From a virus (taxonomy: Duplodnaviria > Heunggongvirae > Uroviricota > Caudoviricetes > Crassvirales): a DNA stretch of 64,000 nucleotides. The notes below the pieces were generated by a model. That model had not been told where the DNA came from and did no database searches. It saw only the letters and a program-made list of their open reading frames with translations. The stretch covers positions 1-64,000 of IMG/VR virus record IMGVR_UViG_3300042448_001903, one strand, 5' to 3'. How positions within the stretch are numbered: position 1 is the stretch's first letter; every line of letters starts with the position of its first letter. Of this stretch, positions 3,461-54,943 are shown one piece after another. The translations under genes and the position numbers were made by a program.

Positions 3461-3748
3461 ATGAGTGTAAAGAAAAACCATTATTTCCAGGCTATTCATA
3501 TTCTACAGGAATTACATAAAGAGTTTCCCATGTATAATATGGGAAGACATCTTTCAACAGCCTTAGAAGGATATGGTGATATGTGGGGAATAACAGATAA
3601 AGAGCTTGTCTATGCTCTAGAGAAATATAAGGAACAAATAGAGATGGATGTTCCTCATACAGAAGAGTCAGAGATAGATAGGATAATTAAAGAAGGAATG
3701 GATCTTGGCCTCTTGTTTAGAGGAGAAGAGTATGAAGAAGAGACGTAA
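3461..3748 (+). CDS. hypothetical protein (95 aa)
   Basis: The ORF is in the track. Its composition is coherent. Confidence 0.4.
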   Translation: MSVKKNHYFQAIHILQELHKEFPMYNMGRHLSTALEGYGDMWGITDKELVYALEKYKEQIEMDVPHTEESEIDRIIKEGMDLGLLFRGEEYEEET

Positions 3749-3757
3749 ATAAAAAAT

Positions 3758-4090
3758 ATGGCTACACTTAAAAAAACTACATACATAAATGCTGAGTTAG
3801 ATTGGTCTGAACAGCAGCTGCAGTCTTGGAAAGCTTATGTGGATGCAAATCCTTTGCATGAGCTTAAAGATAGGATTGAGTGGAAACCAACATCAAAAGG
3901 AGGAATGCTTCCTATGGTGATAGCCTCTATTGAGGCCCAGGGAAAATTCATCCAAGAAACAATGAAGAATTATTTAGCTTTATTAGAAGTGGTGGAGAAG
4001 CTGAGAGAAAAAGAAGAGGCTAAAGTGGAAGTGAGGGGGAAAGGAGAACTCTCTGGAGCTGCTGCTGAATTCCTAGCAAATAGAAAATAA
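3758..4090 (+). CDS. hypothetical protein (110 aa); position immediately upstream of TerL makes a small terminase subunit role possible
   Basis: Its stop overlaps the TerL start (TAATG at 4088-4092). It is predicted helical with a K/E-rich C-terminus. The call is by position only. Confidence 0.35.
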   Translation: MATLKKTTYINAELDWSEQQLQSWKAYVDANPLHELKDRIEWKPTSKGGMLPMVIASIEAQGKFIQETMKNYLALLEVVEKLREKEEAKVEVRGKGELSGAAAEFLANRK

Positions 4091-33154: not shown

Positions 33155-35914
33155 ATGGCCTCATTTACCGATACACAGATACAACCATTTAACCCCTATG
33201 TGCAACAACTTCCTGTTGATGCTATGGTTAAAGTGGGCATGGCTAAACAGCAACAATATGACCAAGGAGTACAAAAAATCCAGGGATATATTGATAATAT
33301 TGCTGGTATGGACGTTTCTAGGGATGTAGATAAAGAACATTTAAAGTCTAAGTTAAATGAACTTGGTGGAAAATTAAGAACCGTAGCTTCGGGGGATTTT
33401 TCTAACCAACAATTGGTTAATTCTGTAGGGGGAATGGCTACACAAATTGTTAAAGATCCATTTGTTCAAGCAGCTGTATATTCAACAGCTAATGACAGAG
33501 AACAGAACAAACAAATGGAAGCTGATGAAAAAGCTGGTAAACTAACCCCACAAGCAAGATATTATTATGACCTTAAAAGGAATGCTTATTTATCAAACCC
33601 CAATTTAAAAGATCAGTCTGGAAAACCAATAAAATTTTCAGGGCAATATACACCTTCTTGGGATATTGAAAAAAATCTTATAGAGGCTGTAAAGGCTGTA
33701 GGGGATAGTAAATATGAAGCACAGCAGGTATTTAAAACAGATCCTGCTGGTAAAATATTATACGATAAAGCAGGAGCTCCTATACTTTCTGAATATGCTG
33801 TAGAAGAAATAAAACAAGGGAAGTTCAGTGAAAAAATTGCTGCAGCTATTGACACTGTTTTGAGTAGACCAGAAGCTAAGCAAGAAATGGCTATGCGTGG
33901 TGTTTATAATTATAGAGGATATAATAAATTAGATGATTTTGTTCGCCAATATGAGGAAGAAAAGAACAAAGGAGTTTCTATTTTAGAATCTAAGAGATTA
34001 GATCTTCTATCTAAAGGAGCTTCTGAAACAGATCCTGAAAAGAAAAAATTAATACAAAGTCTTATAGACAAAACAGATAATGATATTTCCACTTTAAAAC
34101 AATATGGCGATGAAAAAATACAGAGAGCCAGACAAGTGGGTGATCTTGATACATGGAAATCATTAGTGTACGAACAAGGATTAAAAAATAAATTCACAGA
34201 AGCTTATACAACAGAAACAATAAGTAGAAAATATGTTGAAAGTGCTCCTTGGAAAGCTGAAAGACAACGTATTAAAGATGAAAGAGATTGGTGGGCAGAC
34301 CAACAAAATATTAAACAGGGATGGTCTAGAATAGATATTTCTAAACAACAACTTGCTTTAGATAAAGAAAAATGGAAAAACGATCCTAATAATCCAGATA
34401 AACCTTTAACCCCTGGTTCAGACTATTTAACAAAATCATTAAATGATGTAGAAGTTTTTTCTAATTGGATAGAAAAAGGACAAAAAATAGAAGAAAGTGC
34501 TAAGAAAACAAAAGATCAATTTGTCTTTAATTATGTTAAAGCAATAAATTTTGCAAATGGTAAATCTGTTTCTGATGAAGATATAAGAAAAAATATTACT
34601 GAGTGGGAAAAAAATGCTCCTGGATATATAGATAGGACTTATGATAGGGCTAAAGATGATATTCAAAAAAATCCCAAAAATCCATATTATACACCTCTTC
34701 TTACACAATTACCTGTAGCAGAAGCTAATCAAAGAGCTTTAAGTGATTATTCAAATGAAGTGAAAGACTTGAATAAACATCCCGATGTTTTAAGTGCAGG
34801 TTCTGGAGAAAATTTAGATTTTACTAAATTAGGGAAAGGCCTACCTTCTTTTAATATATCATTAAGTGAAGATGATGTTTTATTAGGAGGAACTAGGATG
34901 CCTTTTCAAGAGAAAAAACATTTTAATTTTCAAATAACACCTAAAGATATTCTTAATGCTAGTTTGGTTTATAATAATGATTTTTTAAAAAATCAGGAAT
35001 ATTCTGCATTTGCTAAACAGGCTAAAGAAGAATTAGAAAAAAAATTTGGTAGCCAAGCGTATAGAATACCTGGTTTAATTGGTTCTCCTGTTGTTAGACT
35101 TTATGCAAAAGATGCGGGGGTTAGTGAAGAAGGGATAGAAAGGATTTTTAATACTAGTAAATTAATTACATCTAGTGTAGGTCAAAATGTTTTATCTGCT
35201 AAAGCAAAAGTGTTAAAACAAAAAATGTTAGGCAATGAGCCTCTAGTTGTTTCGTTATATCCTGAGGATGCTAAGGAGCCCCAAATTAAATCTGTCAATC
35301 AACGACTTAATGAAGTGATTGATAATTATAAAGGAACAATAGATGTTGACAAATTTACTAACTTTTTAGCAGGAAAAGATAGAGACAAGTATAATGTTTC
35401 TATTGGTGTTGATAGAGGAACTCCTGGAAGTTATGGAGAAACTTTTACATTAGACCTTTATGATGGAAACACTTTAGTACAACAATTACCTATTGATAAA
35501 AGATCAGCAAATTATATAAAAGGAGCAGTTATTAATCTTCCTGCCCCTGTTTCAGATGTTAATAGAAAAATTGCATGGAGTGAAAACAACAGAACAACAA
35601 ATTCTATAACAGGAGATCCAAACAACCCTGTTGCATATACAGGTGCTTATTATCCACCATCATTCTTTCATCAAAGACAAGAAACAGATATTTTAGGAGC
35701 AGATATAAAAGTTAATGATCTTGGTCAACATAATATTTACTTTTATATAAAAGATGGAGAAGGTAATGTAAGAGGTATTGCTGATAAAAATCCAGGAGAT
35801 ATATACCCTGTTGCATATCCATCTGCTGATGCAGCACAGTCTTTTATAAATAGCTTAACTCCAGGTAGACTTCAAACAATTAAAACACTTAGTGGATTAA
35901 ACTTTAAAAAATGA
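33155..35914 (+). CDS. large virion protein (919 aa), function unknown
   Basis: The ORF is in the track. Its stop overlaps the start of the 4157-aa gene. Confidence 0.5.
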   Translation: MASFTDTQIQPFNPYVQQLPVDAMVKVGMAKQQQYDQGVQKIQGYIDNIAGMDVSRDVDKEHLKSKLNELGGKLRTVASGDFSNQQLVNSVGGMATQIVKDPFVQAAVYSTANDREQNKQMEADEKAGKLTPQARYYYDLKRNAYLSNPNLKDQSGKPIKFSGQYTPSWDIEKNLIEAVKAVGDSKYEAQQVFKTDPAGKILYDKAGAPILSEYAVEEIKQGKFSEKIAAAIDTVLSRPEAKQEMAMRGVYNYRGYNKLDDFVRQYEEEKNKGVSILESKRLDLLSKGASETDPEKKKLIQSLIDKTDNDISTLKQYGDEKIQRARQVGDLDTWKSLVYEQGLKNKFTEAYTTETISRKYVESAPWKAERQRIKDERDWWADQQNIKQGWSRIDISKQQLALDKEKWKNDPNNPDKPLTPGSDYLTKSLNDVEVFSNWIEKGQKIEESAKKTKDQFVFNYVKAINFANGKSVSDEDIRKNITEWEKNAPGYIDRTYDRAKDDIQKNPKNPYYTPLLTQLPVAEANQRALSDYSNEVKDLNKHPDVLSAGSGENLDFTKLGKGLPSFNISLSEDDVLLGGTRMPFQEKKHFNFQITPKDILNASLVYNNDFLKNQEYSAFAKQAKEELEKKFGSQAYRIPGLIGSPVVRLYAKDAGVSEEGIERIFNTSKLITSSVGQNVLSAKAKVLKQKMLGNEPLVVSLYPEDAKEPQIKSVNQRLNEVIDNYKGTIDVDKFTNFLAGKDRDKYNVSIGVDRGTPGSYGETFTLDLYDGNTLVQQLPIDKRSANYIKGAVINLPAPVSDVNRKIAWSENNRTTNSITGDPNNPVAYTGAYYPPSFFHQRQETDILGADIKVNDLGQHNIYFYIKDGEGNVRGIADKNPGDIYPVAYPSADAAQSFINSLTPGRLQTIKTLSGLNFKK

Positions 35915-38900
35915 GTGATCAAAACTTCTTAGATTGGGCAAATAATATTAAAAATGAAGGTCTAGCTAGATTGGATGAGGGTATTCCTCAAGGAGTGGGA
36001 CCTAGTGGGTCTGGTGGAGAGAATAGAAACAATCCTTTAGAAGATCTTCAGAGAGCTAGAATGGAAGCTTTCGGTATGGAAGATACAAGCAAATATGCTT
36101 ATTCCACCCAAGAAACTTCCAAGAGATACCCTAAAACATTTAGGAATGTTGATAATGAAGAGTTATATGCCCAAGGACAAGCTTGGACAAACAAAATGAT
36201 TAATGGTGTAGGCAAAGGACTTGCTTTAACAGGAACCACATTTTTACAGTCTACAGCTGGATTGGTTAATGGTGTGGCTAATTGGGCCCAAACAGGAAAG
36301 TTTTCATCATTTTATGATAATGATTTTAATAGAAGTCTAGATGAATTTAATCAAGATCTTGAAGATAAATGGGCTAACTATTATACAAAAGAAGAAAAAG
36401 ACGCAGATTGGTACTCTCCTAAGAAATGGTTTACAGCTAATTTCTTCTGGGATGGCATTATTAAAAATATGGGATTTTCAGCAGGAGCTGCTTTATCTGG
36501 AGGTGTGTATGCTTCTGTTTTAAAAGCTCTTCCTCTTACATCAAAACTATTTGCAGCAGGTAAATCTGCAGAAGCTTTAGTGGCTACAGAAGAGGCTCTT
36601 CTTGCTGCTGATAAAGGAGCTAGCATGTTTGGTAAGATAAAAAGTATTTCTGATAAATACCTATCTACATATAATAGTCTTAATGCTGGTGGTAGAGCTG
36701 TTGTTGCAGGACTTGCTACAACAGGAGAGGCAGGATTTGAAGCTTATAATAATTCTAATGAATTTAGAAAAAAGAAAATAGAGGAATATAAAGCACAAAA
36801 CTTTGGACTTGCTCCAACAGGTGAAGATCTTGAAAAAATTAATAATGAGGCAGAAAATGTAGGTACATCTTCTTTCCTTCTTAACACTGCTCTATTAACA
36901 GCTACTAACTATATTCAGTTTCCTAAAATACTAGGAGCTTCGTATAAGGCTGAAAAAGGGATTGTTAATGGTCTTACAAAAGAAGTGGCAGATGTTACTA
37001 AAGATGCTGCTGGTAATTTAGTAAAGGCCCCTTCATTCTTTAAAAACAGAGTTTTATCTACATTAAATAATATAAGGCCTTACACATTTTCTATATCTGA
37101 AGCTTTTGAAGAAGGCGCACAATTTGCTATTCAATCAGGCACACAAGATTATTATAATAAAAAATACAGAGGAGCTTCAGCTGATTTTATTGATAGTCTT
37201 AAAGAAGGAGTTAAACAAACCCTCACTACTAACGAGGGAATGGAAAATGTCCTTATTGGTGGTTTATCTGGGGCCTTAATGATGGCTAAAGGGAAAATAC
37301 AAGAGAGTAGAGAAAAAGCAAAAGATACAGCAGAATTTATTAAAAAAGCCAATGAATGGAAATTCTCTGATTTTACAAAGGAAACAATATCTGCTGTTAA
37401 TAGAGGCACTGCTATTCAAGAGGATAGAGAAAAAGCTTTAAGACAAGGAGATGTTTTAGAGAGTAAAGATCTTGAACAAGATTATATTATCAACTACCTA
37501 ACACCTAGAATTAAATATGGCAGAATGGATCTTGTTCGTTCTGACATAGAAGATTATAGAAAATTAGCAATGACTGAAGAAGGATTTGCACAATTAAAGG
37601 CGGAGGGTAAAGCATTAGAGGGAGACACTAGAGAGCAATATTTACAGAGAATAGAAAATCTTGAACAAACTGCTGATAGCATAAAATCTTTATACCAATC
37701 TATTAATTTAAGATATGGTAATCTTATCACCAAAGATGGTAAACCTGTATACTCTCCAGAGACAATAAATAAAATGATTTATGCTGCTACTAAAGTGGCA
37801 GATTATGATAAAAGAATACCACAACTATCTGGTTCTTTGGAGGCTATAAATATAGATGTTGATACAGTTATTAATGATGTTGTAGCTGGAAGTAGTGATT
37901 CTTTTAATGCTGCTATGGCAGAAATTGATGCTCTTGGTAAAAATTTATTACCAGAAAAAGTGGCAGATCTTAAAATAGCTTTAGAAGATGTGGCTGAATT
38001 ATCTGCACGTAGAGCTAAGTTTTTAGATGAATATAATGATATTAAAAACAATCCAGAGAAATATACAGAAGAGGAAGAAGAAGAATTTGCTCCTGATACA
38101 AAAATTAAAGAAAAGCAGATTGTTAAAATTAAGACAAAAGATGGGGAAGAAGATATTGAAGTGGGTACAGAGTATTATTTAGGTAGTGTTGTCTCTTATA
38201 GTAAAGATGGTAAAGAAGTTCATAACTTTCCTAAGTTAACAATTCTTGGTGAAAATGAGGATGGCACAATAAGAATAAAAGGGTCTACAGGAATTATTAA
38301 AAATATATCTAAGGAAGAACTGGCTAGTTATAAGTTGGGGAAGGTGAGTGATACAGAAAAAAATAAAAAAGCTAAGTTTTACATGGATAATATTAATACC
38401 GTATATGAACATTACGGTATTAAAGTGAATGGACAGCCTGCAAAAGGAAGACTTCAATATTCTCCTAAAGAAGGAATTTTATTATTTGTATACAAAGATG
38501 CAAAAGGAAAAATAAGAACAAAAGAAATTGTAGGACAAGACTTTAAAGCTAAAGAAGGCTACCAACATGGAATGATAAAAGCTTTTGGTACTCTTACAGC
38601 TGTTCAACAAAAATCAGAAGAAGAGTTTGCTGCTGAAAGAGACGCAAGAATAGAAGCAAGAAGAGCTAGTAGACTTGAAATACTTACTAATTTATTTGAC
38701 AATCTTTCTGCTAAGCTAGACAAAACTAATACACTTATTGCTCAGAAAAAAGAGCAAGTGGATAGGATTGTTGAGGAGATGAAAGTATTAGAAGAAAAAA
38801 TTAGTAGTGGTGCTATCACTAAGAAAAACAATTTTAAATCTTCTACAAATAAAGCAATTAAAGCTGCTAATAGACTTTCTAGAATGAAGGAAGACCTTCG

Positions 38901-41900
38901 TTTAGAAATAGAAGCATTAGAAGCTGAAAGAGATGAGATAGAGTTTAATCAGTCTTATGTAGCTGATATGGCTCAAAATATTGATGAGTTTCCTGAGGAA
39001 GGAAAAGATTTATTAGAAGATCTTAATGAGCAAGCTTTAAATTTAAACCTATTACAAGAAAGTGTAGGAAAACAAATTAATGCTTTGTCTAAATTAATGG
39101 ATCAAGTGGACGGTGCATTAAAAACAGCTGTTGATTTTGCATTAGATCTTATTAAAAAGTTTGAAGCAAAATATCCAAATCTTCCATATACACCATTAGG
39201 ACTTGTAGAGTTTTTAAATAAAGATCTTTCTGCTAAAGGTGTCTATCCAGATTATCAATCTTACTTACAGGCAAACCCAAATCTATTATCAGATCTTTCT
39301 GAATTTGAAAGAGATATTGCTGATATAGATGAACTTGACGTCATTCCTAATGAAAGATCTTTAGAAGAACTTAGGAAAGAAATGGAGGGGTTACAAAATC
39401 AGCTTAAAGAGGTAGAAAAAGAAATTAAAGCAAAAGAATTAATTTTAAATACATTTGAGGAAGTAGCTAAAAAACATAAACAACAAAAAGAACAGGAAGC
39501 TAGACTGGCTAAAAATGAAGAGTTTAAACAAGCTATTTTAGGAACAATGGTAGCTGATCAACAAACTCTTCAGTATGATGAAACTTATGAGCCTGATGCT
39601 AAAAAGGATGACATTTCTATTGTCACTAGTACAAAGGTGCCTTCAAAGTCAGACAAGCCTCATCATATAAGAGCTAATAAGTTTGGTAACAATTTCCCCA
39701 CTCTTCCTAATAAAGCAAATATCCGTGGTGTATTAGTTACAATTAACAACCAAGCTAGTCTTATACCTGGATTAATAGATAGACTTTTTGGAGAAGGCAC
39801 ACCAGAGCAAAAAGCAGGAGTGATAGCTCTTGTTATGGTTAATACAGATGGAGAACTTGTTGATGTTAATGGAGAAGTTATTCCTGAAGGAGTAGATAAA
39901 TTAGATAATGCAATATATCAGGTGATGCCTGATGAGGGATTAGAATGGAGTGCTGAATATAGTAAGAGTGGTAAGCCATCTTCTATGTTTAGAAGTACCA
40001 CTCCAGATAATGTTAAAAAGGCATTAATAGAGCAGTATAAAACATGGAGAGATGGTATATTATCAACTGTTGACCTTGTACAATATAGAATAGACGCTTC
40101 ATTTGGTATTTTACAAAATGAAAAATATACAGATGATAAAGGAGTTGAACAGACTAACTACCGAGCTAAAAACTCTGTAGAAGAGGCTGGACTTGTTCCA
40201 AAAGGATTAGAAAACAATAATGTAATTGTTCTTCGTACTACAGAAGGTGCGGAAGAAAATGGTAGCGTTACATTTACTAATGCTAAAGGTAGACCATTAT
40301 TAAAGACAGCAAATGGTCTTGTTAAACTAAACAATAGAAAGTTTAATGAGAAAGAAGCTTCTTTAATATATAATATGATTTTAAGACTTTCTAGAAATGT
40401 AGAAAAAGATGGTAATGCTAAATCAGCAGATTCTTTAGTTATATTAGATTGGCTCAAATCTGTTGTATATTGGGGAGTTCCTAAAGTGGTTGATGGTAAC
40501 AGAAAGAATCCAGGATATAACAGTATATGGTTTGAAAAAGATGCAGATGGAATATTAAAATTATTCTTATCTGGAAAAGGAGGAAACATTCCTTTTGGTC
40601 CATTATCCATTCAAGAAAACCAAGATAATTTAATGTCTCTTATACAGGACATGTATAATAATGTTAATGCCACTATTATAAATAAATCTTGGAATGAACC
40701 TTATTCTGAAATTATTGGTGTTAAAAAAGATGGATCTTTAGAAATAAAAACATGGCCTAACTACCAATCTTATCTACTATCTAATAAAGATGCGGATGGT
40801 AATAAAAGAAATGCAGAGAATATTCCTCTTACAACAATAGCTCGTCCTTTAAAAAATGAGGAAGATGTTAATAGAGAAGGGGTTTATTTTACAATCACTG
40901 ATAATGCGGATAAGTTTGTTATTCCAAAAACAGTGGTAACAACACCGAAGGTGCTAACCCCAACAGCCCCAGCAGCTCCTGTAGCTCCTACACCAGCAGC
41001 TAAAATAGTTGTTGATGGCTATACATTTGATGGAGAGGCAAAAAATAACATTACCCTTTTAGGTAAATATAATATTAATTTTTCATATGATGCTATAAAA
41101 GGAGTGTTTCAAGGAGAACTGTCTGGAGATGGTATCGAAAAAGCAATAGCTGATCTTAACGCACCAGAAGAACAAATTAAAGATGCTTTTGCAGGATCAA
41201 TTGTAAAAACTTTAGCTCCACAGATAGAAGAATATAAAAAGAAAGTGGCTGAACAAACAGCTCCTGTAGCAGCAGAAATTATAAGTGAGGAAGCTAAAAC
41301 AGAAATTGCATCTGAAGGAATGACAGAGTCAGATCTTGACAAAATAAGAAGACAAATGATGGAATCTTCTGATGAAGATGGTCCTGTGTTTAGAGAGAAA
41401 ATTGCTAAAGAAATAGAAAAATTTGAGGGAGAGAATTGGCAGAAGGTGGAAAAGTGGTTAAAAGAAAACTTTCCAAATGTTCCTGTATATAGAGTGAAGA
41501 ATGTAATACAAGCTACTAATGGTAGACAAGCTTGGGGTATGTTTCAAGACGGTGCTATATACATATATGAGAATGCGGAAGTGGGCACTGTTTACCATGA
41601 GGTTTTTGAAGCTGTATGGAAAATGTTTTCTGATGCTGAAGAACAAGCTAATGTATTAGCTGAGTTTAAAGCTAGAAAAGGTTCTTTTATAGACAGACCT
41701 ACAGGAAAAGAAGTTAAATATTCTGAGGCCACTAATCAAGAAGCTAAAGAACAACTAGCAGAAGAGTTTAGAGATTATGTAATGTATAAAAAAATTCCAG
41801 GTAAACCAACTTCTGGAAGACCATTTATATTAAAATTATTTGCAGACCTCGTTAGTTTTATTAAGGAATTTTTTACAGGAAATAAGGCTGGAAGTAATAC

Positions 41901-44900
41901 AGAAAAACTATTCTCTAAAATAGGAAATGGATATTACAAACAATATTCTCCATATCACTCAGCACTTTCTTTCGCTAAAGAAGGAGTGATTGATATAGAA
42001 GAAGCTATTGCAAATGCTGGGGCAGAGTTTAGTATAATTGGAATGAATGGTCAGGAAAGACATGATGTTATACAAAACATGACCTACCTCACTTTAAAGA
42101 ATATTTTCAGAGATAATAAAAGCTTTTTTACTATTCCAAATATTAACAAAACGGAATTATATATAAAATTAAAAGACCAAGTTCAAAAAGACATTCTTAA
42201 AACTGTAAGTTCTACAAAAGCTTTAATTGAGAAAGGTACATTTACAGAAAAACAAGGGGCTCCTCACATAGAAAAATCTCTTGCTTTATGGAAGGCTGTA
42301 GAAGATAATTGGGATGAGTTTAAATTTAAACACGAGGAATATTTAAGAGGATATTCAATAGAATTTGATGAGAATGATAATGCAACATTAACAGATGAGA
42401 ACAATTCTGGAAAATCAGATTATCAAGATGCTAGAAAAATTGACAATTTTAAAAAGGCTAATGCAGCTATAAAAATGTTATTATCCACTGTTGCTAGAGT
42501 GGATAGAGATGGTAATATGGACCGTTCTACAGTGAATGGTGCTAAGTTAATTCCTACTAGTGAGGTTTTTATGAAAGTAATGAACCAAGTTCATAGTGCC
42601 AAGACTATAGAAGAAATGTTACAAGGACTTAAAGAATTAGGTTTAAAAGATAATAATTATAAAACATTATATGAAAGACTTACTAAATCTGCTATAACTG
42701 TTAAAGGAATTGATTATTCTAATTTAACAGAACCACATGAGGCCCAATTACTTGCTTCATTCTGGAAAACATTTAAGAAAATGAATGCTGATGTAAAAGC
42801 AGTGTTTATTCTTTCTAATGATGATGTTGTAATAGGAGATTCAAATCTTTCTTCTGCAGCAAGACAATTAAGATCAGATTTTATTTCTCAAATAGTTGAT
42901 GCAATAAAAACTAAGAAAAGTTCTTATTTTGTATATGATGATAAGACTAGAAGATTTAAAGGAGAGCCTAAATCTGTTCCTAAAACTCTTTTAAGTGCAT
43001 CAGCAAGAATAGCGTTTTTAGAAAAATTAGGAATATCTTTTACAGAGGAAGAATTAAAATCTCTTAACAGTGATAAATTAAAAGTATTTAACACAGCTGT
43101 AGATGGTATTAGAACAAGTATTGAGCAAGCTAAAGAAATAGCCACTATATCTGGTAAGGTGTTAGATATTGAGGGCCAGCTATTAAAACTAGCTACAATA
43201 AAAGCAATAATTACCACTCCAGAATTTGACAGTACATATTTCAATCTTAATGGAGAAAGAGTGCAGTCTTTTATAGGAACCAATCCTGGTAGTGATCTTT
43301 ACGATGTACTTTCTCAGGTTAACAATTTAAATGATGTTCCCGCTCAATATCAGTATTTATTAACAGATTCTTTTGTTAAGAATTCTGTTATATTAAACAA
43401 AATGTTTAATTTAGAGACAGGGGAAAAAAGAGAAGATATTGAAAACTATTTATCTATAGGATATGTAGATGGTACAATTAATGAACAGAGTGGTAAGAAA
43501 AAAGAATCTTCTAAGTTAACCTATAGAGAAAGATTAATACAAGAAATTAATTTAAATCTTAATGGATATTATATGAATCTTGTCCCTGGAGATGCTTCTA
43601 TGGAATGGATGGCATATATGGGTAATCATGTTTCTGTAAAAAGATTAAGAGCTACAGGAATGGAAGATGTTAATAAAATATTTAAAGGATATTTTATTTC
43701 AGAATTACTATTATCTAGAGATGTAAATAGAAACACAAAAGAGACAAAAACTAGAAAAAGTACAGATCTTAGATTCTTTAAACCTATTCTTGGAGAGAAG
43801 TTGCATAATGATATTGTGAAAGAAACTGGAACTCCAGAAGAAGTTTATAAAAAATATGAGTCAAAAATTAATGCTGCTCTAAAGAGTTTTATTGAGGAAG
43901 ATGTAAATAAATTTAGAAATAATTTACTTTCTTATGGTATTATAAATAAAACAGATTTAGGCTGGGAAGTGGAAAACATAGCACTTTCAGAGTCTGTGTT
44001 TGAAAATATTGATGATTTAAACAGAGAGTTGACAGCTTTGAATATCAACTTTATGATTAACAATATAGAACTTCATAAGTTATTATATTCAGATCCTTAT
44101 CAATACAGCGATGAATTAAAACGTATTAAAAACTTTCTCTCTCCTAGACAACGTTTATTAGGATCAGACAATATAAATTCACTATTAAATAATGTTTGGA
44201 ATAAAGGCTTTAAAAAAGGAGATTTAGGGTATACAGATTTTAATAAAAATTACTTTAAGACCACAACACTAGCTGATATTGTAGGAGTGATTGATCTTCC
44301 TGGATATAAAGAATATGAAGAAACGGATGGTAGTGGTATAATTTCTTTTAAAGCGTATAGAAATTTTAGAATTCGTTCTGGAGAATGGAATGAAAACGAA
44401 GAGCTTCAATATAAGTTTGATATTAAATTTGAAGAAGCTGCTAAATCAGGAGCCTCTAAGGAAGAGTTACAAAAGCTTCTTAATAAGAATCCTGCTGCAA
44501 AGAGTGCTTATACACCAGTTAAACCTATTGTAGCTGGAAATAAAGATAATGGTAAAAATTACAATGATGTAATGCTAGACAAGTTTGCATTATATCCATT
44601 ATCATATAGAGTGATGTATGAGATAAATGCTTCTTCCAACGCATTAAAGCTTTATGATAAAATGCAGGAAGAAAACATTGATTATGTAGTGTTTAAGAGT
44701 GCTAGAAAAGTGGGAGCTGAAAAAACTAATTCTGTATATAACGAGGATGGTAGTTTTAACACTAATGAGTTTGAAGGAGTGTTCAATGTTCCTTTTGACA
44801 TAATGAGTGTTCAATCTGAAGTGCCTTCTAAAGACACTCCTTTGGTAACTAGAGGATCCCAGGTGACAAAACTCATCACTATGGATTATATGGAAGCAGG

Positions 44901-47900
44901 AGTTCCTGTAGACTTTGAAGAAACAAAAACATTTCCAGAAAGGTATAAAGCTTGGTATGCATTAGACGAAGAAGGTAGAATAAAAGAATCTACTCTTTAT
45001 AAAGAAATAAAAAACAATCAAAATCTTTTAGAAGCTATTGCTACAGAAGGATATAACTCTTTATTGAATAAATTGCATATAACAGAAACTACTGATGGAT
45101 ATGTTATTGAACCAGATAATGTTGAAAAAGTTGCAGAGTTTTTAAGACAAGAGTTATTAAAAAGAGAGGTTAATGATAATATAAGTGAGGCTGTAAGAAA
45201 TTATGCACAAGGTTCTGTAATATTAGAGGCCACACCTGCCTACCAACAAATAAGAAATATTTTATATTCCATAGCAGATAAGGAAGTAATTTCTCCTAAA
45301 ATTTCTGGTGGATTAAAAGTACAAATTCCTGCTGCTTTATTAGAATCTACAAAAACAGAATTAAGAGAAATTAACGGAAAACTAGGATATACATCTGACA
45401 CTCTTGAGTTTTATAAGGATGAGGATGGTAAACGTGTGTGTGAAATAATGGTGGGTAGATGGTTTAAGAGTGATTTGTCTGACGAAGAGCTTTTAAAATA
45501 TTTAAATGAAACTCCAGAAGGACAAAAAATTCTATCTGGACTTGCATACCGTATTCCTACACAAAAGCAAAACTCTATTGATGTTTTTAAAATTAAAAGA
45601 TTTCTTCCTAAGGAATTTGGAGACTCTGTTGTAATTCCCTCAGCATTGGTTCAGAAAGTGGGATCTGACTTTGATATAGATAAACTTTCTATATACTTTA
45701 AAAACGTATTTAAAAATGCTAAAGGAAATATAGAGATTGTACCATTTTTTGGTATAGATCCTAATAACAAAAATAAATATGAAGATATTTTCTTTGATAT
45801 TTTACAAAGCAAAATAGATAAAGCAGAAGCTAAAAAAATATCTACAGCTGATTTACAGTCTTTATTCAGTGATATTTCTTTGGGAATATCTAGTGACAAA
45901 ACAGCTAATAAATGGATTCCTATTTTTAAACAAATGTTTGAAAAAGAAACTGAAGACGGTAAATTATTAGTTGCTGATATTGAGGAAATTTTTATAAAAA
46001 GATTAGAAAAACTTGGTAAAAAACTTTCTGAATTAACTAATTGGGATGTACAGCAGATTTTATTAGAAGAGTTTAAAGACAAAATGTACAAAGAGTCTTT
46101 AGAAAATGAATATATAGAGTCTTGTGAAAAACTTGTTTCTCATCCTAAAAATTTCAAAAGACTTACTTCTCCAAACTCCGCAGATCAACTTAAAGATTTA
46201 TCTAAAAAAATCTCTGATAAATTAGGAGTGGGGGCTTTTAACTATGATTCTACAGGAAACATGCTAAACAGGGTGTTTATGTCAAGACTTAGACAAGCAT
46301 TTGTTAGTGGTAAATATGCTATTGGTATTGCTGCTGTAAGTCAAACTAATCACTCATTAAATCAGAGATCTCCTATTTACATAGATAAAAATAAATTAGC
46401 AATACAGGATGCTGCTGACAGAGAGTGGTTGGGTGATGCAGAAATTAACTTTGAACAGTATAACAGTATAGAAGTGGATGGAGAAAAAGTTCCTACACTT
46501 TCTATGATAGAAAATGCAGAAGGCCAAGATATATCAGATATAAATGGACAGTTTATTGATGGATATGTGGATATATCTAAAGGACCCTGGATTATGGAAT
46601 TAGGAGCCACTCCTAATGTAGCTAGTACATGGTTGTTTTTAGCTAAGATAGGTGTACCAATCGACACTATTGCTTATTTCATGAACCAACCCATTGTGAG
46701 AGATTATTTAAAATCCATAGAAAGGTCTGGGTATTCTTGGTTATTTATTGGGGACATATTTGAAGATGTTATTTCTAAATATGATTCATCTATTACAAAG
46801 CCCACTAAAATACCTAGCAAGAGTAAATTATGGGATATGATTGGAGAAGGAGAAAATTTATCTCCAGAGCAGAAAGCAGATCAAAGATTTATCCTATCTG
46901 AGTTTGTTAAGTATGCTAAGATGGCTAATCAGCTATACTTAGTTACACAGGGTTCTAATTTTGATACAGCTTCTTTTAATGATCCATTTTTAGTATTTAA
47001 GAAAATGGAACAACTTAAAAAAGCAAAAACATCTATTATATCTTCTGTAGATGATATATTAGAAAATTCTTTCATAGGAAATTTAAGTGATTTATTGCTT
47101 AAATTAAGAAATGCTCTTTCTACAATACTTGTTTCTGACCAAACTAATGTTAGAGGAGTTATGGAAAAAGTGTTACTTCCGTATATAAATGAATCGGATA
47201 GGGATTTTGTTAAAATTTCTCAAAAGGCAGTGAATGATCTTTTTGATTGGGCAGTGCAGAATGATAGAGATCTTAATACAATGGTACAAAGAATTCTTTT
47301 AGAAAATAACAATGTGGCTAAACAAATGTCAGATTTTATTGTAGATGTTAAAAAATCTAGCAAACATCCTTTAAAAGATAATATTTTAATAAATAGTCTT
47401 GTTCCTGTATTTTCTCAAAAACTAGAAAACGGAACAAACAATTTAAAGATTGTTGGTAGAGATAATAAAGTGTATGATCAAAATCAAATTATCTATGCTT
47501 TTGAAGAACTAAAACAATACTTTAAAGGTATAAAAAGTCCTTTATATGGAAACTTAGTTAGGCTCGCTGTTTTGCAATCTGGATTAAATAGGTCTCCAAT
47601 ATCATTTACATCTCTTATTCCTTATGAAGATTTTAAAGAAATCTACAATAAGACCCTATCAAAGCTTGAGACAATTCCAAATCTTAATGATTTTTATAAA
47701 TTAGGAGTTTTTCAAAGAAATAATTGGAATGATGGAGATGTTGTTCCTAGTAGAAGACTAGTTAAAAAACAAGATCAATTTGGTAATTGGAGATATAAAA
47801 ATTTTGATTTTTTTAGAAATTTATCTGGGTTTAATAAACCTATGGAAACTGGAGATATTCCTCAATTGATTAAGTTTAATACAAAATCCAGGGAAGCAGA

Positions 47901-48384
47901 CTCTGACTATGTTGTGTTTACATGGGAAGTGGGAAATAAATATGAGAAAGAAGCTATGAGAAAGAAGGGTGATTATTCTTATATTAAAAAAGGACTTTTC
48001 AAAAAAATATATAGCGGAGATATACCATTTACTAATGAATATACAATGAATAAAGATGGACAAAATATTGTTATTACTGAATATATTTATAAAATGGTTA
48101 ATGCTTGGGGAGACTCTTTCAGGGCTGTAGAAATGTATGATGTAGCTAAAAAATCTAAGATAGATAATGGATTTTTAAAAGTGGAACAAGAAAAAGAAGA
48201 TGATGAAATTTTATCATATTTAGATGAAAATTTAGTATCTTTGGAGTCTACAACTACTGAAAAAACAGTGTCTCTTAAAGATGGAAAAACATATTCATCT
48301 GAGCAATTAAACACAAAAATGCTTGTAGACATGGGCTACACATTGGCTGAAGCAGGAACAATAATTAAAAATAATAAATGTTAA
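35911..48384 (+). CDS. giant protein (4157 aa) carrying a candidate RNA-polymerase catalytic motif DFDID (aa 3253-3257); putative virion-packaged crAss-like RNA polymerase fused to an N-terminal ~1900-aa extension
   Basis: GSDFDIDKLSIYF is encoded at nt 45661-45699. DFDID is, to my recollection, the variant of the universal DxDGD metal-binding motif in gp66, the 2180-aa virion RNAP of crAss-like Cellulophaga phage phi14:2. The context (a block of giant ORFs next to tail genes in a Bacteroidota phage) matches crAss-like cargo and RNAP genes. Confidence 0.55.
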   Translation: MSDQNFLDWANNIKNEGLARLDEGIPQGVGPSGSGGENRNNPLEDLQRARMEAFGMEDTSKYAYSTQETSKRYPKTFRNVDNEELYAQGQAWTNKMINGVGKGLALTGTTFLQSTAGLVNGVANWAQTGKFSSFYDNDFNRSLDEFNQDLEDKWANYYTKEEKDADWYSPKKWFTANFFWDGIIKNMGFSAGAALSGGVYASVLKALPLTSKLFAAGKSAEALVATEEALLAADKGASMFGKIKSISDKYLSTYNSLNAGGRAVVAGLATTGEAGFEAYNNSNEFRKKKIEEYKAQNFGLAPTGEDLEKINNEAENVGTSSFLLNTALLTATNYIQFPKILGASYKAEKGIVNGLTKEVADVTKDAAGNLVKAPSFFKNRVLSTLNNIRPYTFSISEAFEEGAQFAIQSGTQDYYNKKYRGASADFIDSLKEGVKQTLTTNEGMENVLIGGLSGALMMAKGKIQESREKAKDTAEFIKKANEWKFSDFTKETISAVNRGTAIQEDREKALRQGDVLESKDLEQDYIINYLTPRIKYGRMDLVRSDIEDYRKLAMTEEGFAQLKAEGKALEGDTREQYLQRIENLEQTADSIKSLYQSINLRYGNLITKDGKPVYSPETINKMIYAATKVADYDKRIPQLSGSLEAINIDVDTVINDVVAGSSDSFNAAMAEIDALGKNLLPEKVADLKIALEDVAELSARRAKFLDEYNDIKNNPEKYTEEEEEEFAPDTKIKEKQIVKIKTKDGEEDIEVGTEYYLGSVVSYSKDGKEVHNFPKLTILGENEDGTIRIKGSTGIIKNISKEELASYKLGKVSDTEKNKKAKFYMDNINTVYEHYGIKVNGQPAKGRLQYSPKEGILLFVYKDAKGKIRTKEIVGQDFKAKEGYQHGMIKAFGTLTAVQQKSEEEFAAERDARIEARRASRLEILTNLFDNLSAKLDKTNTLIAQKKEQVDRIVEEMKVLEEKISSGAITKKNNFKSSTNKAIKAANRLSRMKEDLRLEIEALEAERDEIEFNQSYVADMAQNIDEFPEEGKDLLEDLNEQALNLNLLQESVGKQINALSKLMDQVDGALKTAVDFALDLIKKFEAKYPNLPYTPLGLVEFLNKDLSAKGVYPDYQSYLQANPNLLSDLSEFERDIADIDELDVIPNERSLEELRKEMEGLQNQLKEVEKEIKAKELILNTFEEVAKKHKQQKEQEARLAKNEEFKQAILGTMVADQQTLQYDETYEPDAKKDDISIVTSTKVPSKSDKPHHIRANKFGNNFPTLPNKANIRGVLVTINNQASLIPGLIDRLFGEGTPEQKAGVIALVMVNTDGELVDVNGEVIPEGVDKLDNAIYQVMPDEGLEWSAEYSKSGKPSSMFRSTTPDNVKKALIEQYKTWRDGILSTVDLVQYRIDASFGILQNEKYTDDKGVEQTNYRAKNSVEEAGLVPKGLENNNVIVLRTTEGAEENGSVTFTNAKGRPLLKTANGLVKLNNRKFNEKEASLIYNMILRLSRNVEKDGNAKSADSLVILDWLKSVVYWGVPKVVDGNRKNPGYNSIWFEKDADGILKLFLSGKGGNIPFGPLSIQENQDNLMSLIQDMYNNVNATIINKSWNEPYSEIIGVKKDGSLEIKTWPNYQSYLLSNKDADGNKRNAENIPLTTIARPLKNEEDVNREGVYFTITDNADKFVIPKTVVTTPKVLTPTAPAAPVAPTPAAKIVVDGYTFDGEAKNNITLLGKYNINFSYDAIKGVFQGELSGDGIEKAIADLNAPEEQIKDAFAGSIVKTLAPQIEEYKKKVAEQTAPVAAEIISEEAKTEIASEGMTESDLDKIRRQMMESSDEDGPVFREKIAKEIEKFEGENWQKVEKWLKENFPNVPVYRVKNVIQATNGRQAWGMFQDGAIYIYENAEVGTVYHEVFEAVWKMFSDAEEQANVLAEFKARKGSFIDRPTGKEVKYSEATNQEAKEQLAEEFRDYVMYKKIPGKPTSGRPFILKLFADLVSFIKEFFTGNKAGSNTEKLFSKIGNGYYKQYSPYHSALSFAKEGVIDIEEAIANAGAEFSIIGMNGQERHDVIQNMTYLTLKNIFRDNKSFFTIPNINKTELYIKLKDQVQKDILKTVSSTKALIEKGTFTEKQGAPHIEKSLALWKAVEDNWDEFKFKHEEYLRGYSIEFDENDNATLTDENNSGKSDYQDARKIDNFKKANAAIKMLLSTVARVDRDGNMDRSTVNGAKLIPTSEVFMKVMNQVHSAKTIEEMLQGLKELGLKDNNYKTLYERLTKSAITVKGIDYSNLTEPHEAQLLASFWKTFKKMNADVKAVFILSNDDVVIGDSNLSSAARQLRSDFISQIVDAIKTKKSSYFVYDDKTRRFKGEPKSVPKTLLSASARIAFLEKLGISFTEEELKSLNSDKLKVFNTAVDGIRTSIEQAKEIATISGKVLDIEGQLLKLATIKAIITTPEFDSTYFNLNGERVQSFIGTNPGSDLYDVLSQVNNLNDVPAQYQYLLTDSFVKNSVILNKMFNLETGEKREDIENYLSIGYVDGTINEQSGKKKESSKLTYRERLIQEINLNLNGYYMNLVPGDASMEWMAYMGNHVSVKRLRATGMEDVNKIFKGYFISELLLSRDVNRNTKETKTRKSTDLRFFKPILGEKLHNDIVKETGTPEEVYKKYESKINAALKSFIEEDVNKFRNNLLSYGIINKTDLGWEVENIALSESVFENIDDLNRELTALNINFMINNIELHKLLYSDPYQYSDELKRIKNFLSPRQRLLGSDNINSLLNNVWNKGFKKGDLGYTDFNKNYFKTTTLADIVGVIDLPGYKEYEETDGSGIISFKAYRNFRIRSGEWNENEELQYKFDIKFEEAAKSGASKEELQKLLNKNPAAKSAYTPVKPIVAGNKDNGKNYNDVMLDKFALYPLSYRVMYEINASSNALKLYDKMQEENIDYVVFKSARKVGAEKTNSVYNEDGSFNTNEFEGVFNVPFDIMSVQSEVPSKDTPLVTRGSQVTKLITMDYMEAGVPVDFEETKTFPERYKAWYALDEEGRIKESTLYKEIKNNQNLLEAIATEGYNSLLNKLHITETTDGYVIEPDNVEKVAEFLRQELLKREVNDNISEAVRNYAQGSVILEATPAYQQIRNILYSIADKEVISPKISGGLKVQIPAALLESTKTELREINGKLGYTSDTLEFYKDEDGKRVCEIMVGRWFKSDLSDEELLKYLNETPEGQKILSGLAYRIPTQKQNSIDVFKIKRFLPKEFGDSVVIPSALVQKVGSDFDIDKLSIYFKNVFKNAKGNIEIVPFFGIDPNNKNKYEDIFFDILQSKIDKAEAKKISTADLQSLFSDISLGISSDKTANKWIPIFKQMFEKETEDGKLLVADIEEIFIKRLEKLGKKLSELTNWDVQQILLEEFKDKMYKESLENEYIESCEKLVSHPKNFKRLTSPNSADQLKDLSKKISDKLGVGAFNYDSTGNMLNRVFMSRLRQAFVSGKYAIGIAAVSQTNHSLNQRSPIYIDKNKLAIQDAADREWLGDAEINFEQYNSIEVDGEKVPTLSMIENAEGQDISDINGQFIDGYVDISKGPWIMELGATPNVASTWLFLAKIGVPIDTIAYFMNQPIVRDYLKSIERSGYSWLFIGDIFEDVISKYDSSITKPTKIPSKSKLWDMIGEGENLSPEQKADQRFILSEFVKYAKMANQLYLVTQGSNFDTASFNDPFLVFKKMEQLKKAKTSIISSVDDILENSFIGNLSDLLLKLRNALSTILVSDQTNVRGVMEKVLLPYINESDRDFVKISQKAVNDLFDWAVQNDRDLNTMVQRILLENNNVAKQMSDFIVDVKKSSKHPLKDNILINSLVPVFSQKLENGTNNLKIVGRDNKVYDQNQIIYAFEELKQYFKGIKSPLYGNLVRLAVLQSGLNRSPISFTSLIPYEDFKEIYNKTLSKLETIPNLNDFYKLGVFQRNNWNDGDVVPSRRLVKKQDQFGNWRYKNFDFFRNLSGFNKPMETGDIPQLIKFNTKSREADSDYVVFTWEVGNKYEKEAMRKKGDYSYIKKGLFKKIYSGDIPFTNEYTMNKDGQNIVITEYIYKMVNAWGDSFRAVEMYDVAKKSKIDNGFLKVEQEKEDDEILSYLDENLVSLESTTTEKTVSLKDGKTYSSEQLNTKMLVDMGYTLAEAGTIIKNNKC

Positions 48385-48387
48385 AAT

Positions 48388-51300
48388 ATGGCATGTCCTA
48401 ATATAAATCTTGATTCTTGGAAATTGTTAGTAGCAGCTAGAGGAGAGAATGTTGCTTATGCTTTATGGGATCTTTATGAAGGAAATGTTCCTGAAAGTGA
48501 GAGTAAAAGTTCTATTGTTAAAGCTGGATTAAAATCTGTAGATGCTTTACAATCTGAGAAGGCTATTAAACTTTTTTCTTCCTTAGAAAAGAATAGAGTG
48601 AAAGGAGATGCTTTTTGGAACAAGGTACAATCTGATCTTAGTATTCCTAAAGACCAAATAGAACTTCTCAAATCATTTAATACAACAGATCGTAATGAGT
48701 TGATTACCAACATGTTAGCTAATTATAGTTATGCTATTGAGATTAATGTTGCTAAAAATAAAATAGGTTCTGATATTTATGGTAAAAGTTCTGAACCTAA
48801 ACAAATAACCGATGAAAATTCTGCTATGGCTTTAGGAGCTGAAGTTGGGGATTATTTTATTGAATATATTACAGAAGATGGGGATCCTGATATAGCAATT
48901 TTTAAAACATTAGAAGAGGCTAACAGAGCTTTTAATACTCAAAGAGCTGCTAATAATAGTTCTGTATATTCTAACCTAACAGTTCCAGGAGGAACCAATT
49001 ATACAGAAAATGAAATAGCTACACCAGCTATTACTCCTTCTATTAAAGGACATGCTCAGTTTGCTACAGATCAAGGTATTGGTTGGTTTAGAAGTGATGA
49101 TTCTATAGTTGGTATTCAAAATAGAAAAGCACTACCTCAAGAAATAGAAGAAGTTAGAGATACTGAAGGTGCTCAAGCAGCTAAAGAATTAGAAAAAAAT
49201 GGCATTCCTGGTGTTGGAGGTACACCTACTACAACTCGTAGAATACTAGAAGTACAATCTGATCTTTTTCAGAAGGGTAGAGATAGTAAAGTTCTTTCTA
49301 AAAAGCTTGATATTAAAAAAGTAGGAGATACATTTATATCTAATGGTGAAAAGTTTACAGTTACAAATATTGACACAGATTCTAATCTTTATGAATTAAT
49401 TACAATTTCAAATCAAGAAGGTAAAACAGCTACTTTAAGAAGAAGTGCGTTAGAAAAAAGATTTGATGAAAGAGGAGATAATAGTTCAGATAATCAATTC
49501 CTCCAACTTCTAAACAAAAACTCTAACTGGGTTACATTCTTTATTAAATCTATTCTACAAGATAGTGCTAAAAAAGGATATGAGAAAGTGTTATTCCCTT
49601 CTGGTAATACAGCTAGTAAAGTAGAAGGACATACAACATTAGAAGAGTTTAAGAAACAAAAAGAAAATAGAATTAAAGAACTTGAAGAATCTAGTATTTT
49701 AAAAAATAAAAATGTTGATGGATTTTATTATATTCAAAGATATTTAGAAGATGAAAATGGTAATGAGGTTTTAACTTGGAGAAAAGTAAGCAATGAAACA
49801 GGTAGAGAAAAAACAGCTACTAAAGAAGAAATTGAATCTTTAAAAAGTAAGTTTTCAGAAGAAACTAAAAATGAAATAAATCAACTTAAAAAAGAGCTTG
49901 AAGATGTTGAAAAAAATGGTTTTGGTGCTTTAAAACCTATATACAACTTCTATGAGAACACTGTAAAGAATATTTTAAATAAACAATACGGAAAGGATAA
50001 TGTAAAACAAATTACAGATGAATATGGTAATACATGGAATGAAGTAGAAATTGTTCCTGAAAGAGAACAGAAACAAATTCTTTTACAAAAAGAAGGAATG
50101 CCTGCTTCTAAGGCTTCTGCTGAAACACTTTCTAAGGTGAAGGAAGCTGCTAAAAAAATGGGTATTAGTATTCAGCAGCTTTCTGATTATTTAAAAGGTA
50201 ATAAAGACGTAACAACAAAAGGAATAAATGGACTGGCAGATCTTGTTAGAGGGATAATTGCTGTAGCAGAGGGGAAAGAAGATGTTGCTCTCACAGAAGA
50301 AATGGTACACGTAGCAACAGCTATTTTAGAACAAATGGACCCAAGACTTGTTACAGAAATGATTTCTAAAATAGATAGATTTAAGATATATAAACAAGTC
50401 TATGATCAATATAAAGATGTATATAAACTTCCTAATGGAAAACCAGATATACGTAAAATAAAGAAAGAAGCTGTAGATAAACTTTTAGTGGAAGTAATTA
50501 TTAATAAAGCAGGAGCTACAGAAGCCTATCCTGAATTAATGGAGGAAGCCACTCAATCATTATTTAGAAACTTTTGGAATAAAATATTAGATCTTATAAG
50601 AGGTGTATATAGAAAATCCAACATATCTATATTTGAAGAAGTGGGAGCTAGAGTGATTGAAGGTGAGGTGGGAGGAACCATTTCTGATATTTCTGAAGGA
50701 GGAATATTTTACCAACTATCTGATGCACAAAAGAAAGTGCAAGAAAAAATACAGGAAACAAGAAATTCTATTAACAAAGTGGTTAGTGATGAAAAGTCTG
50801 ATGAAGTGTTAGCAGATTCAGATGAGTCTACCAACTGGTATGAAATATCTCTTCCTGATGGTACAAAACAAAAAATAACCAAAAGGGTGACAGATCTTGT
50901 TAAAGAGTGGTATAAGAAAAGATTTAAAGATAAAAAATTCACTCCAGAAGAAAAGGCTTTTAACGAGATGAAAAGAAAATATGGGGTGGAGGGGCATGCT
51001 GATTTTGAAGAAATACATAATAGATATTATAATAAAGATGGTACAAAAAAGACCACTCCTGATCCAAGACCTGTAAAATTCAATCTTCCTTCTGAAGAAA
51101 TGTATAATATGTTGGAAAACTATTATGTAAGTCTTTTACAAACATTAGATAAAGATGCATTAGTTTTCTCGGAAGTTATAGTTTACAATCCTAAAGATAA
51201 AAGAGCTGGTACAATAGACTTCTTAGCTGTAGATCCTTCGGGGAAAGGACATATTCTTGATTGGAAGTTTATGCAAATAAACGGTGAAGATGTTGCATGG

Positions 51301-54884: not shown

Positions 54885-54913
54885 TTGATAATAAAGAGAA
54901 AAAGGTATCTTTG
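54885..54913 (+). promoter_or_regulatory. Bacteroidetes sigma-A type promoter TTG-N18-TATCTTTG upstream of tail-fibre gene
   Basis: TATCTTTG lies at 54906-54913 and overlaps the ATG at 54911 that the track used. This argues that the real start is the ATG at 54944. Confidence 0.45.
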
Positions 54914-54943
54914 CATCTTAATCTCGCCTTAATATATTTAATT

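Follow-up and report, generated by a model that had tools for sequence, protein, structure and literature searches.

What is the make-up of a phage protein that carries the catalytic motif of a crAss-like RNA polymerase and is nearly twice as long as the characterised enzyme? The question is raised by an open reading frame (ORF) of 4157 amino acids (aa), which the ORF listing places with an ATG start at 35911..48384 on the + strand of the window, here meaning the 64,000 nucleotides (nt) of the Crassvirales record IMGVR_UViG_3300042448_001903 in IMG/VR (positions 1 to 64,000). An original prediction, made from the sequence alone, proposed that this giant ORF is a candidate for a crAss-like RNA polymerase, either with a fusion partner at its N-terminus or with a much larger architecture. 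We compared the ORF with known phages, with its relatives in public collections and with known structures. We conclude with high confidence that it encodes one polypeptide made of a gp67/gp47-type cargo protein and a gp66/gp50-type RNA polymerase, which are separate proteins in the phages phi14:2 and crAss001.

35911..48384, + strand: predicted fusion of a gp47/gp67-type cargo protein and a gp66/gp50-type virion RNA polymerase in one frame, with homology to both moieties

The catalytic motif

The coordinates and translation bear out a 4157-aa ORF with DFDID at the place originally given. The segment GSDFDIDKLSIYF occurs once in the giant ORF, at aa 3251-3263, and nt 45601-45760 are read as VGSDFDIDKLSIYF, in which G3251 corresponds to nt 45661 and DFDID to aa 3253-3257 (nt 45667-45681). 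No second DFDxD was found among window ORFs of at least 500 aa, so this copy is the sole one. From the giant ORF's own composition, DFDID is expected by chance 0.0035 times in that ORF and about 0.018 times across the approximately 21,000 aa of window ORFs, which makes the earlier estimate of less than 1 percent roughly right. As originally stated, gp66 of phi14:2 carries this motif, given as 1361-DFDID-1365 by Drobysheva et al. (bioRxiv), and its distance to the C-terminus is comparable (900 aa in the giant ORF and 815 aa in gp66).

The C-terminal polymerase moiety

In BLASTP, aa 2658-3760 of the giant ORF aligned with residues 817-1788 of gp66 (E=9e-26). GSDFDIDK is identical letter for letter, and DFDID falls on gp66 1361-1365. 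A tblastn search with aa 2201-4157 against 50,697 phage records returned cr108_1 (E=6e-26), g066 of phi14:2, annotated "Catalytic RNA polymerase subunit" (E=1e-17), and the "putative RNA polymerase" of crAss001, which is gp50 (E=1e-12). The latter protein (2412 aa, with DFDVD) is matched by window aa 2892-3624. Profile comparison of the polymerase part by hhalign gave 99.2% to gp66 and 99.0% to gp50, at an identity to gp66 of 19-21%, and the residues D, F, D, I, D and K are invariant across 62 aligned sequences.

We then modelled aa 2650-3800 from an alignment of 61 homologues. The model has a mean predicted local distance difference test score (pLDDT) of 84.6 and a predicted template modelling score (pTM) of 0.85. 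A Foldseek search against PDB gave one significant match, gp66 itself (6vr4_A, E=7.5e-29), with the next at E=0.4. Two beta-rich blocks, aa ~2872-2980 and ~3130-3276, are separated by helices (aa ~3008-3127), and DFDID lies in the second. We assigned them as the first and second double-psi beta-barrels (DPBB1 and DPBB2), and the moiety can be divided as follows.

43858..47310, + strand: RNA polymerase core with a predicted gp66-type two-barrel fold, aa 2650-3800

44524..44850, + strand: first beta-rich domain, assigned DPBB1, aa ~2872-2980, with approximate boundaries (model strands, conserved motifs)

44932..45291, + strand: helical connector between the barrels, aa ~3008-3127, corresponding to gp66 1095-1238 (model helices, BLASTP register, gp66 domain limits)

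45298..45738, + strand: second beta-rich domain, assigned DPBB2, aa ~3130-3276, with the catalytic DFDID (model, alignment)

46270..46650, + strand: bridge helix, aa 3454-3484, and trigger-loop region, aa ~3540-3578 (alignment to gp66, model helix)

47311..48384, + strand: C-terminal domain and variable tail ending in NNKC, with Cys4157 as the last residue (codon 48379-48381)

The assigned DPBB1 contains R2932-K2933-V-G-A, followed just past the domain by G2982-S-Q, both invariant in the relatives, and by alignment only, K-V-G and G-(S/T)-Q also recur in gp66, gp50, cr85_1 and cr108_1. A 31-residue model helix, aa 3454-3484, aligns with the gp66 bridge helix 1529-1559, and the bridge-helix and trigger-loop region is the most conserved block of the clade. 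The model predicts the two-barrel architecture in a single chain, namely two barrels, a connector of ~140 residues, a bridge helix and a trigger loop; the arrangement of multisubunit enzymes, with DFDGD in beta-prime and the barrels on two polypeptides, is not the one found here.

Judged by homology and the modelled fold, the C-terminal part belongs to the gp66-type RNA polymerases with two barrels. The profile and structure comparisons proposed with the original prediction came out in its favour: similarity to gp66 is found at the level of BLASTP, hhalign and Foldseek, the gp66 structure is the sole significant match, and DFDID lies inside an assigned barrel. One detail needed correction, in that gp47 of crAss001 had been named as a polymerase profile. 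The crAss001 orthologue of gp66 is gp50, and gp47 is the orthologue of the N-terminal partner. According to Drobysheva et al. (bioRxiv), gp66 is packaged in the virion, injected and responsible for early-gene transcription, and each Asp of DFDID is required.

The N-terminal cargo moiety

The first part of the giant ORF was compared with the separate cargo proteins of other crAss-like phages, as had been suggested, and it matches both gp67 and gp47. In BLASTP, aa 64-474 match gp67 of phi14:2 at aa 45-416 (E=3e-11); gp67 is a virion protein of 1797 aa whose gene directly precedes g066. A profile of seven fused relatives gave two colinear hhalign matches to crAss001 gp47, aa 90-746 to gp47 92-848 (99.9%) and aa 1833-1995 to gp47 2087-2236 (95.3%). 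By the same program the N-terminal domain reaches 96.3% with gp67 and 99.5% with a 1552-aa protein of Leptolyngbya phage Lbo-JY46. In phi14:2 gp65, gp66 and gp67 are virion proteins (Drobysheva et al.), and in crAss001 gp47, gp49 and gp50 are cargo of the capsid and were found in virions (crAss001 paper).

36088..38160, + strand: conserved domain at the N-terminus of the cargo moiety, aa ~60-750, containing several moderately hydrophobic helices rich in Gly/Ala (gp67, gp47, JY46, csAssE-Sib)

38308..40950, + strand: charged, indel-rich stretch, aa ~800-1200, followed by a clade-only domain, aa ~1201-1680 (conservation and gap profile, composition)

40951..41400, + strand: Pro/Ala/Thr-rich variable linker, aa ~1681-1830 (sequence, insertions in relatives)

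41407..41940, + strand: putative zincin-like domain, aa ~1833-2010, with YHEVFEAVW and H1896/E1897/E1900 (nt 41596-41610; hhalign 95.3% to gp47)

The Gly/Ala-rich, moderately hydrophobic helices lie at aa ~100-460 and are conserved in gp67, gp47 and JY46. Their character suggests a possible membrane-active role, and no segment reaches a Kyte-Doolittle mean of 1.5 over 19 residues. The charged stretch is probably a coiled-coil, and for the region aa ~800-1680 the PDB and Pfam matches were at chance level only. The linker is the most indel-rich part of the giant ORF; at aa 1651-1700 relatives have an insertion of about 96 residues.

The N-terminal domain is also found in the 1552-aa protein of Lbo-JY46 (L011:17746-22404) and, by tblastn, in a 2208-aa protein of csAssE-Sib (L015:19620-26246). 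In Lbo-JY46 the adjacent gene encodes 2748 aa without DFDxD, and in both phages no DFDxD polymerase was found in the giant gene adjoining the one with the N-terminal domain, the only part of these genomes that was searched. The name of csAssE-Sib suggests that it belongs to the epsilon group, which lacks the transcription block (Yutin 2021). Since this domain occurs elsewhere without an adjacent crAss polymerase, we favour a role in cargo or ejection that is independent of the polymerase.

On the strength of these alignments the N-terminal ~2100-2300 aa are taken to be the gp67/gp47 cargo protein. The idea of a cargo protein fused to the polymerase therefore stood, and the size of the partner, first put at ~1900 aa, became ~2100-2300 aa. 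The phi14:2 order g067-g066-g065 corresponds to ORF4157-ORF2150, and because of the N-terminal, polymerase and downstream matches, we conclude that the window preserves the order gp67-gp66-gp65 and has the first two proteins in a single frame.

Frequency of the fusion and earlier reports

Six IMG/VR contigs (L003-L008), with 47-84% protein identity, contain a single ORF of 3945-4809 aa with DFDID, and cr108_1 (MT774385, Steigviridae) has the same fusion. Moreover, a phmmer single-sequence scan of 1.84 billion representative proteins returned 1928 relatives. Among the 150 best of these matches 141 sequences were newly returned, and 120 of them have lengths of 3500-5167 aa, their cores lying at about residues 2300-4200. 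GSD(F/Y)D(I/V)DK is present in 114 of these 120 fused representatives.

Fused genes of this kind have been reported before. Crass-like polyproteins with all three proteins in one ORF are described by Yutin 2018 as cited by Drobysheva et al., a 2023 review (PMC10136315) mentions RNA polymerase genes of "up to ~6000 aa", and predicted protein boundaries vary within clades (Yutin 2021). Because such polyproteins and such long polymerase genes are on record, the giant ORF is not a new phenomenon; it is a typical member of a large known family of fused cargo-polymerase genes. The fused form is the majority in public metagenomes, and the split form is that of the two phages studied by experiment. 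What has been concluded from these two on stoichiometry and ejection order may therefore not transfer to the fused form. In practical terms, a confident annotation of the gene is now possible, and the domain map assigns positions to both barrels, the connector, the bridge helix and the junction zone.

Some relatives carry additional enzyme domains, which are possible injected effectors. A NADAR/YbiA-like domain (PF08719) was found on the proteins P0009, P0025, P0044 and P0074, a histidine phosphatase domain (PF00300) on P0010, and an ART-PolyVal ADP-ribosyltransferase domain (PF18760) in the gene after P0050.

The zincin-like motif and possible cleavage

If both proteins are made as one chain, the product might be a polyprotein that is cut into free polymerase and cargo, at maturation or after ejection and perhaps by its own zincin-like domain. 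This would refine the fusion reading given above, and we consider it possible, though on balance doubtful. It has precedent in Drobysheva et al., who call the fused polyproteins "likely cleaved" and suggest that a zincin-like protease in a neighbouring protein might activate the polymerase. In addition, the H-E-x-x-(H/E) motif lies ~1360 aa upstream of DFDID at a distance fixed clade-wide (1358 aa in the giant ORF and 1306-1470 aa in the 120 representatives).

The block aa 1840-2010 around this motif is the most conserved one apart from the active site, and it includes a conserved LAEEFRDY ~55 aa downstream of YHEVFEAVW. YHEVFEAVW aligned with TTYHEAFHVV of gp47 (HEAFH, aa 2157), HEAFH of cr85_1 and HESFH of cr108_1. 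In place of the zincin consensus HExxH, the giant ORF has HEVFE, with the second His changed to Glu. HExxE is kept in all seven close relatives, and the 120 fused representatives comprise 80 with HExFE and 30 with HExFH. A second metal ligand that is Glu, and not His, both here and in those 80 speaks against an autocatalytic protease. The fold was not confirmed either: the model of aa 1828-2340 has a pLDDT of 72.7 and, as in zincin secondary structure, three strands before the motif helix, but Foldseek against PDB returned no match at E<0.1, and Pfam has no family for the domain, the only hit being a sub-threshold SprT-like match for gp65. hhalign of the domain to the HEIMH region of gp65 likewise gave no match. 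Neither a variable linker nor a recognisable cleavage site is seen at the junction. The putative zincin-like domain may cut the polyprotein, or it may do something else.

The junction and the integrity of the fusion

Homology to gp47 stops at aa ~1995, with ~105 gp47 residues remaining, and homology to cr108_1 and gp66 begins at aa 2488 and ~2650, respectively. From these limits, we place the junction at about aa 2100-2350, within a region of unbroken conservation.

41941..43857, + strand: conserved helical region with the junction, aa ~2011-2649, with no cysteine and no variable linker (conservation profile)

Several observations weigh against a simple joining of the two known proteins. First, conservation is unbroken over aa 1840-3290, and the exact junction is not placeable. 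Second, no alignment was obtained for gp66 residues 1-794, including the cleft-blocking domain 196-233, at a divergence from which absence is not inferable. Third, phmmer with the whole ORF and hmmsearch with a 7-sequence profile (A1) against PDB sequences both missed 6VR4, though it is present in the library, and these searches gave actin and keratin matches at chance level only. Last, PHROGs and Pfam returned no family for the giant ORF or for five of its sub-segments.

The continuous conservation over the junction would also be expected if the N-terminal half belonged inseparably to a much larger polymerase, for instance as a module for initiation or template handling. GenBank in fact calls proteins of the gp47 type "RNA-polymerase subunit", and the crAss001 paper calls them "RNA polymerase-associated". 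However, gp66 alone is active in vitro (Drobysheva et al.), and phi14:2, crAss001 and cr85_1 each encode the partner in a gene of its own, which in the last two lies on the opposite strand from the polymerase gene. The N-terminal domain also occurs in csAssE-Sib and Lbo-JY46, in the latter next to a giant gene without DFDxD. We therefore regard a larger polymerase as improbable.

Some sequences contain breaks near the junction. In L009 (~9900-10050) the frame changes at aa ~2296 and in L010 (~9990-10030) at aa ~2333, with homology running on across both changes, and the P0050 contig has an in-frame stop at aa ~2677. L012 is a single open frame throughout. Since the three positions differ and L012 is open, we take the breaks for sequencing errors, recent mutations, programmed frameshifting or stop-codon recoding. 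Database matches of ~1850 aa and two-gene calls in L009 and L010 had at first suggested that a gene boundary is conserved at aa ~2300, which was rejected because the N-termini of the matches scatter over aa 2190-3082, L012 is open and homology is continuous. That the long ORF is itself an artefact, an assembly or sequencing error having removed a stop or shifted the frame between two genes, would agree with these breaks but is highly improbable, because a single ORF is found in the six independent IMG/VR contigs (47-84% identity), L012 and the 120 representatives, homology crosses the frame changes, and the three breaks, being at different places, look exceptional.

Proposed role of the fused protein

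A cargo protein joined to its polymerase, the reading we prefer, can be put in a scheme for infection. The first ~2100-2300 aa would form the cargo part, with its N-terminal hydrophobic-helix domain, long charged region and putative zincin-like domain, and the last ~1800-2000 aa would form a single-chain two-barrel DNA-dependent RNA polymerase with DFDID as its Mg-binding site. The fused protein would be packed in the capsid along with the neighbouring giant proteins and would then enter the host threaded through the tail, either before the DNA or together with it. After ejection it would refold and then transcribe early phage genes. We infer packaging, ejection and early transcription by homology to phi14:2 and crAss001 and from the position in the cargo block.

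Comparison with known systems

The relation to the known systems differs from case to case. In phi14:2, gp66 (PDB 6VR4) is free-standing, 2180 aa long and starts with MAC, whereas the window polymerase continues a gp67-type protein in the same chain and lacks a free N-terminus. In crAss001, gp47, gp49 and gp50 each have their own gene, that of gp47 lying on the other strand from those of gp49 and gp50, whereas in the window the gp47- and gp50-type proteins are fused; gp47 has the canonical HEAFH and the window HEVFE. In the reported three-protein polyprotein (orthologues of gp67, gp66 and gp65) all are joined, but the window fuses two and keeps the gp49/gp65-type gene separate at 48388-54840.

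A named counterpart is cr108_1 (MT774385, Pipoluvirus rarus; QOR58986 and QOR58987), which like the window has a gp47-like N-terminus, with the core from aa ~2143. It has a canonical HExxH (HESFH at aa 1525) in place of HEVFE. Its fused protein has a Cys one residue from the end, and the next gene, which starts with MANVC, is colinear with the 2150-aa ORF of the window. Both coding sequences are annotated as hypothetical, and the gene is split by ~290 nt inside the catalytic motif (GSD / YDIDK), which is intact in the window. This insert (L013:16479-16768) has stops in all frames and, from its sequence, looks like an intron.

Outside this lineage, gp96 of Thermus phage P23-45 also combines a virion RNA polymerase with another protein, in this case a tape-measure protein, but there the polymerase is N-terminal and the phage lineage is unrelated. 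The 3500-aa virion RNA polymerase gp50 of phage N4, which is capsid-packed, ejected and used for early transcription, is a functional analogue. It has a T7-like single-subunit fold and not a two-barrel one, and gave only a weak Foldseek match (3c3l_A, E=0.4, probability 0.03).

Terminal cysteines

Cysteine is very rare in the giant cargo proteins, at about 1-3 per 1300-4800 residues, and its positions are mostly terminal, as listed below.

phi14:2 gp67, 1797 aa: Cys 1797 (last residue)
phi14:2 gp66, 2180 aa: Cys 3, 2179
phi14:2 gp65, 1421 aa: Cys 3
crAss001 gp47, 2341 aa: Cys 2339
crAss001 gp50, 2412 aa: Cys 5, 1334, 2404
crAss001 gp49, 1349 aa: Cys 5
giant ORF of the window, 4157 aa: Cys 3177, 3405, 4157 (last residue)
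downstream ORF of the window, 2150 aa: Cys 3

Proteins of the gp47/67 type carry Cys at the C-terminus only, the polymerases at both ends and the gp49/65 type at the N-terminus only. The gp47/67 type has a single Cys in the last 4 residues, and gp66, gp50 and the cr85_1 polymerase have theirs at residues 3-5 and in the last 9. The cr85_1 proteins follow the pattern of crAss001, and the 1552-aa protein of Lbo-JY46 and the 2208-aa protein of csAssE-Sib have one Cys each, as the last residue. A free C-terminus with the sole Cys, as in the gp47/67 type, is not found in the giant ORF: its cargo moiety has no C-terminus of its own, the junction zone contains no cysteine, and none occurs before aa 3177. 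Among 72 database relatives with intact C-terminus, 71 have a Cys in the last 8 residues, against 0.25 expected; for the fused representatives the figures are 117 of 120 in the last 8 residues and 0 of 120 in the first 8.

A nucleotide-level cause at gene junctions is unlikely, because in crAss001 and cr85_1 the genes for gp47 and for the polymerase are not neighbours. Disulfides are present in the crAss001 virion (crAss001 literature), and the papers searched contain no mention of cargo-protein cysteines. As a speculative explanation, the ejected giant proteins might be joined head to tail via terminal cysteines, by disulfide or metal bridge, in the order gp47/67-type, polymerase and gp49/65-type. 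They would exit the capsid as a single thread and come apart once in the reducing cytoplasm, and the fusion would be the first link made as a peptide bond. The pattern offers a testable idea for cargo order and threading through the tail, a question left open by the crAss001 structural work.

Gene neighbourhood, host and habitat

The window has a GC content of 32.8%, and the giant ORF stands in a run of ORFs of 1388, 919, 4157, 2150 and 1315 aa that follows the muzzle gene. The genes for TerL, the portal, the major head protein and tail proteins lie upstream, and the muzzle gene ends the tail module directly before the cargo genes. This agrees with the AT-rich setting and the run of giant ORFs beside tail genes that were first described.

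21320..28009, + strand: muzzle protein, 2229 aa (Pfam PF25731 crAss_MUZ, E=1.8e-37; PHROG virion structural protein)

33155..35914, + strand: cysteine-free gene of 919 aa (BLASTP to the 845-aa protein of Lbo-JY46 at the same position, E=1e-19)

48388..54840, + strand: gp49/gp65-type partner, 2150 aa, starting with MAC, with its sole Cys at residue 3 (colinearity with cr108_1)

The 919-aa gene is probably a smaller cargo protein, and its stop overlaps the start of the giant ORF in a shared ATGA. A gap of 3 bases separates the stop of the giant ORF from the 2150-aa ORF, which is colinear with the 1714-aa gene that follows the fused polymerase gene of cr108_1 (E=1e-13) and resembles gp65 (E=0.004) and gp49 (hhalign 57% and 49%) only weakly. 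The HExxH of gp65 was searched for in this ORF and not found.

TerL (window 4090-6111) is closest to that of Lbo-JY46 (41%), then to those of the Cellulophaga phages phi17:2 and phi4:1 (33%), with 30.6% to the unclassified csAssE-Sib and 27-28% to classified gut crassviruses. When 20 kb of the window were compared with the phage collection by megablast, no match was obtained. Tara, GOS and Delaware coast are the sample sources given for relatives of the giant ORF, and these labels point to aquatic habitats. Because TerL is closest to Lbo-JY46 and the relatives are aquatic, a Bacteroidota host is an assumption.

Other features of the window were also noted. A 150-aa antisense ORF inside the giant gene (window 40158-40610, - strand) is most likely spurious. 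A homologue of DNA repair exonuclease (window 17929-19152; PHROG 704, E=1e-49) lies within the structural block, between the tail genes and the muzzle gene. A third giant ORF (window 54911-58858) opens with MNVTCSAEVCPV, read from the ATG at 54944, with Cys at residues 5, 10 and 18, and a comparable C-x4-C stands near the N-terminus in relatives. Further downstream in L009, a large gene that is cut off by the end of the locus (1009 aa), and that may or may not correspond to this third giant ORF, contains a Peptidase_S74 domain, as would be expected of a tail fibre or spike.

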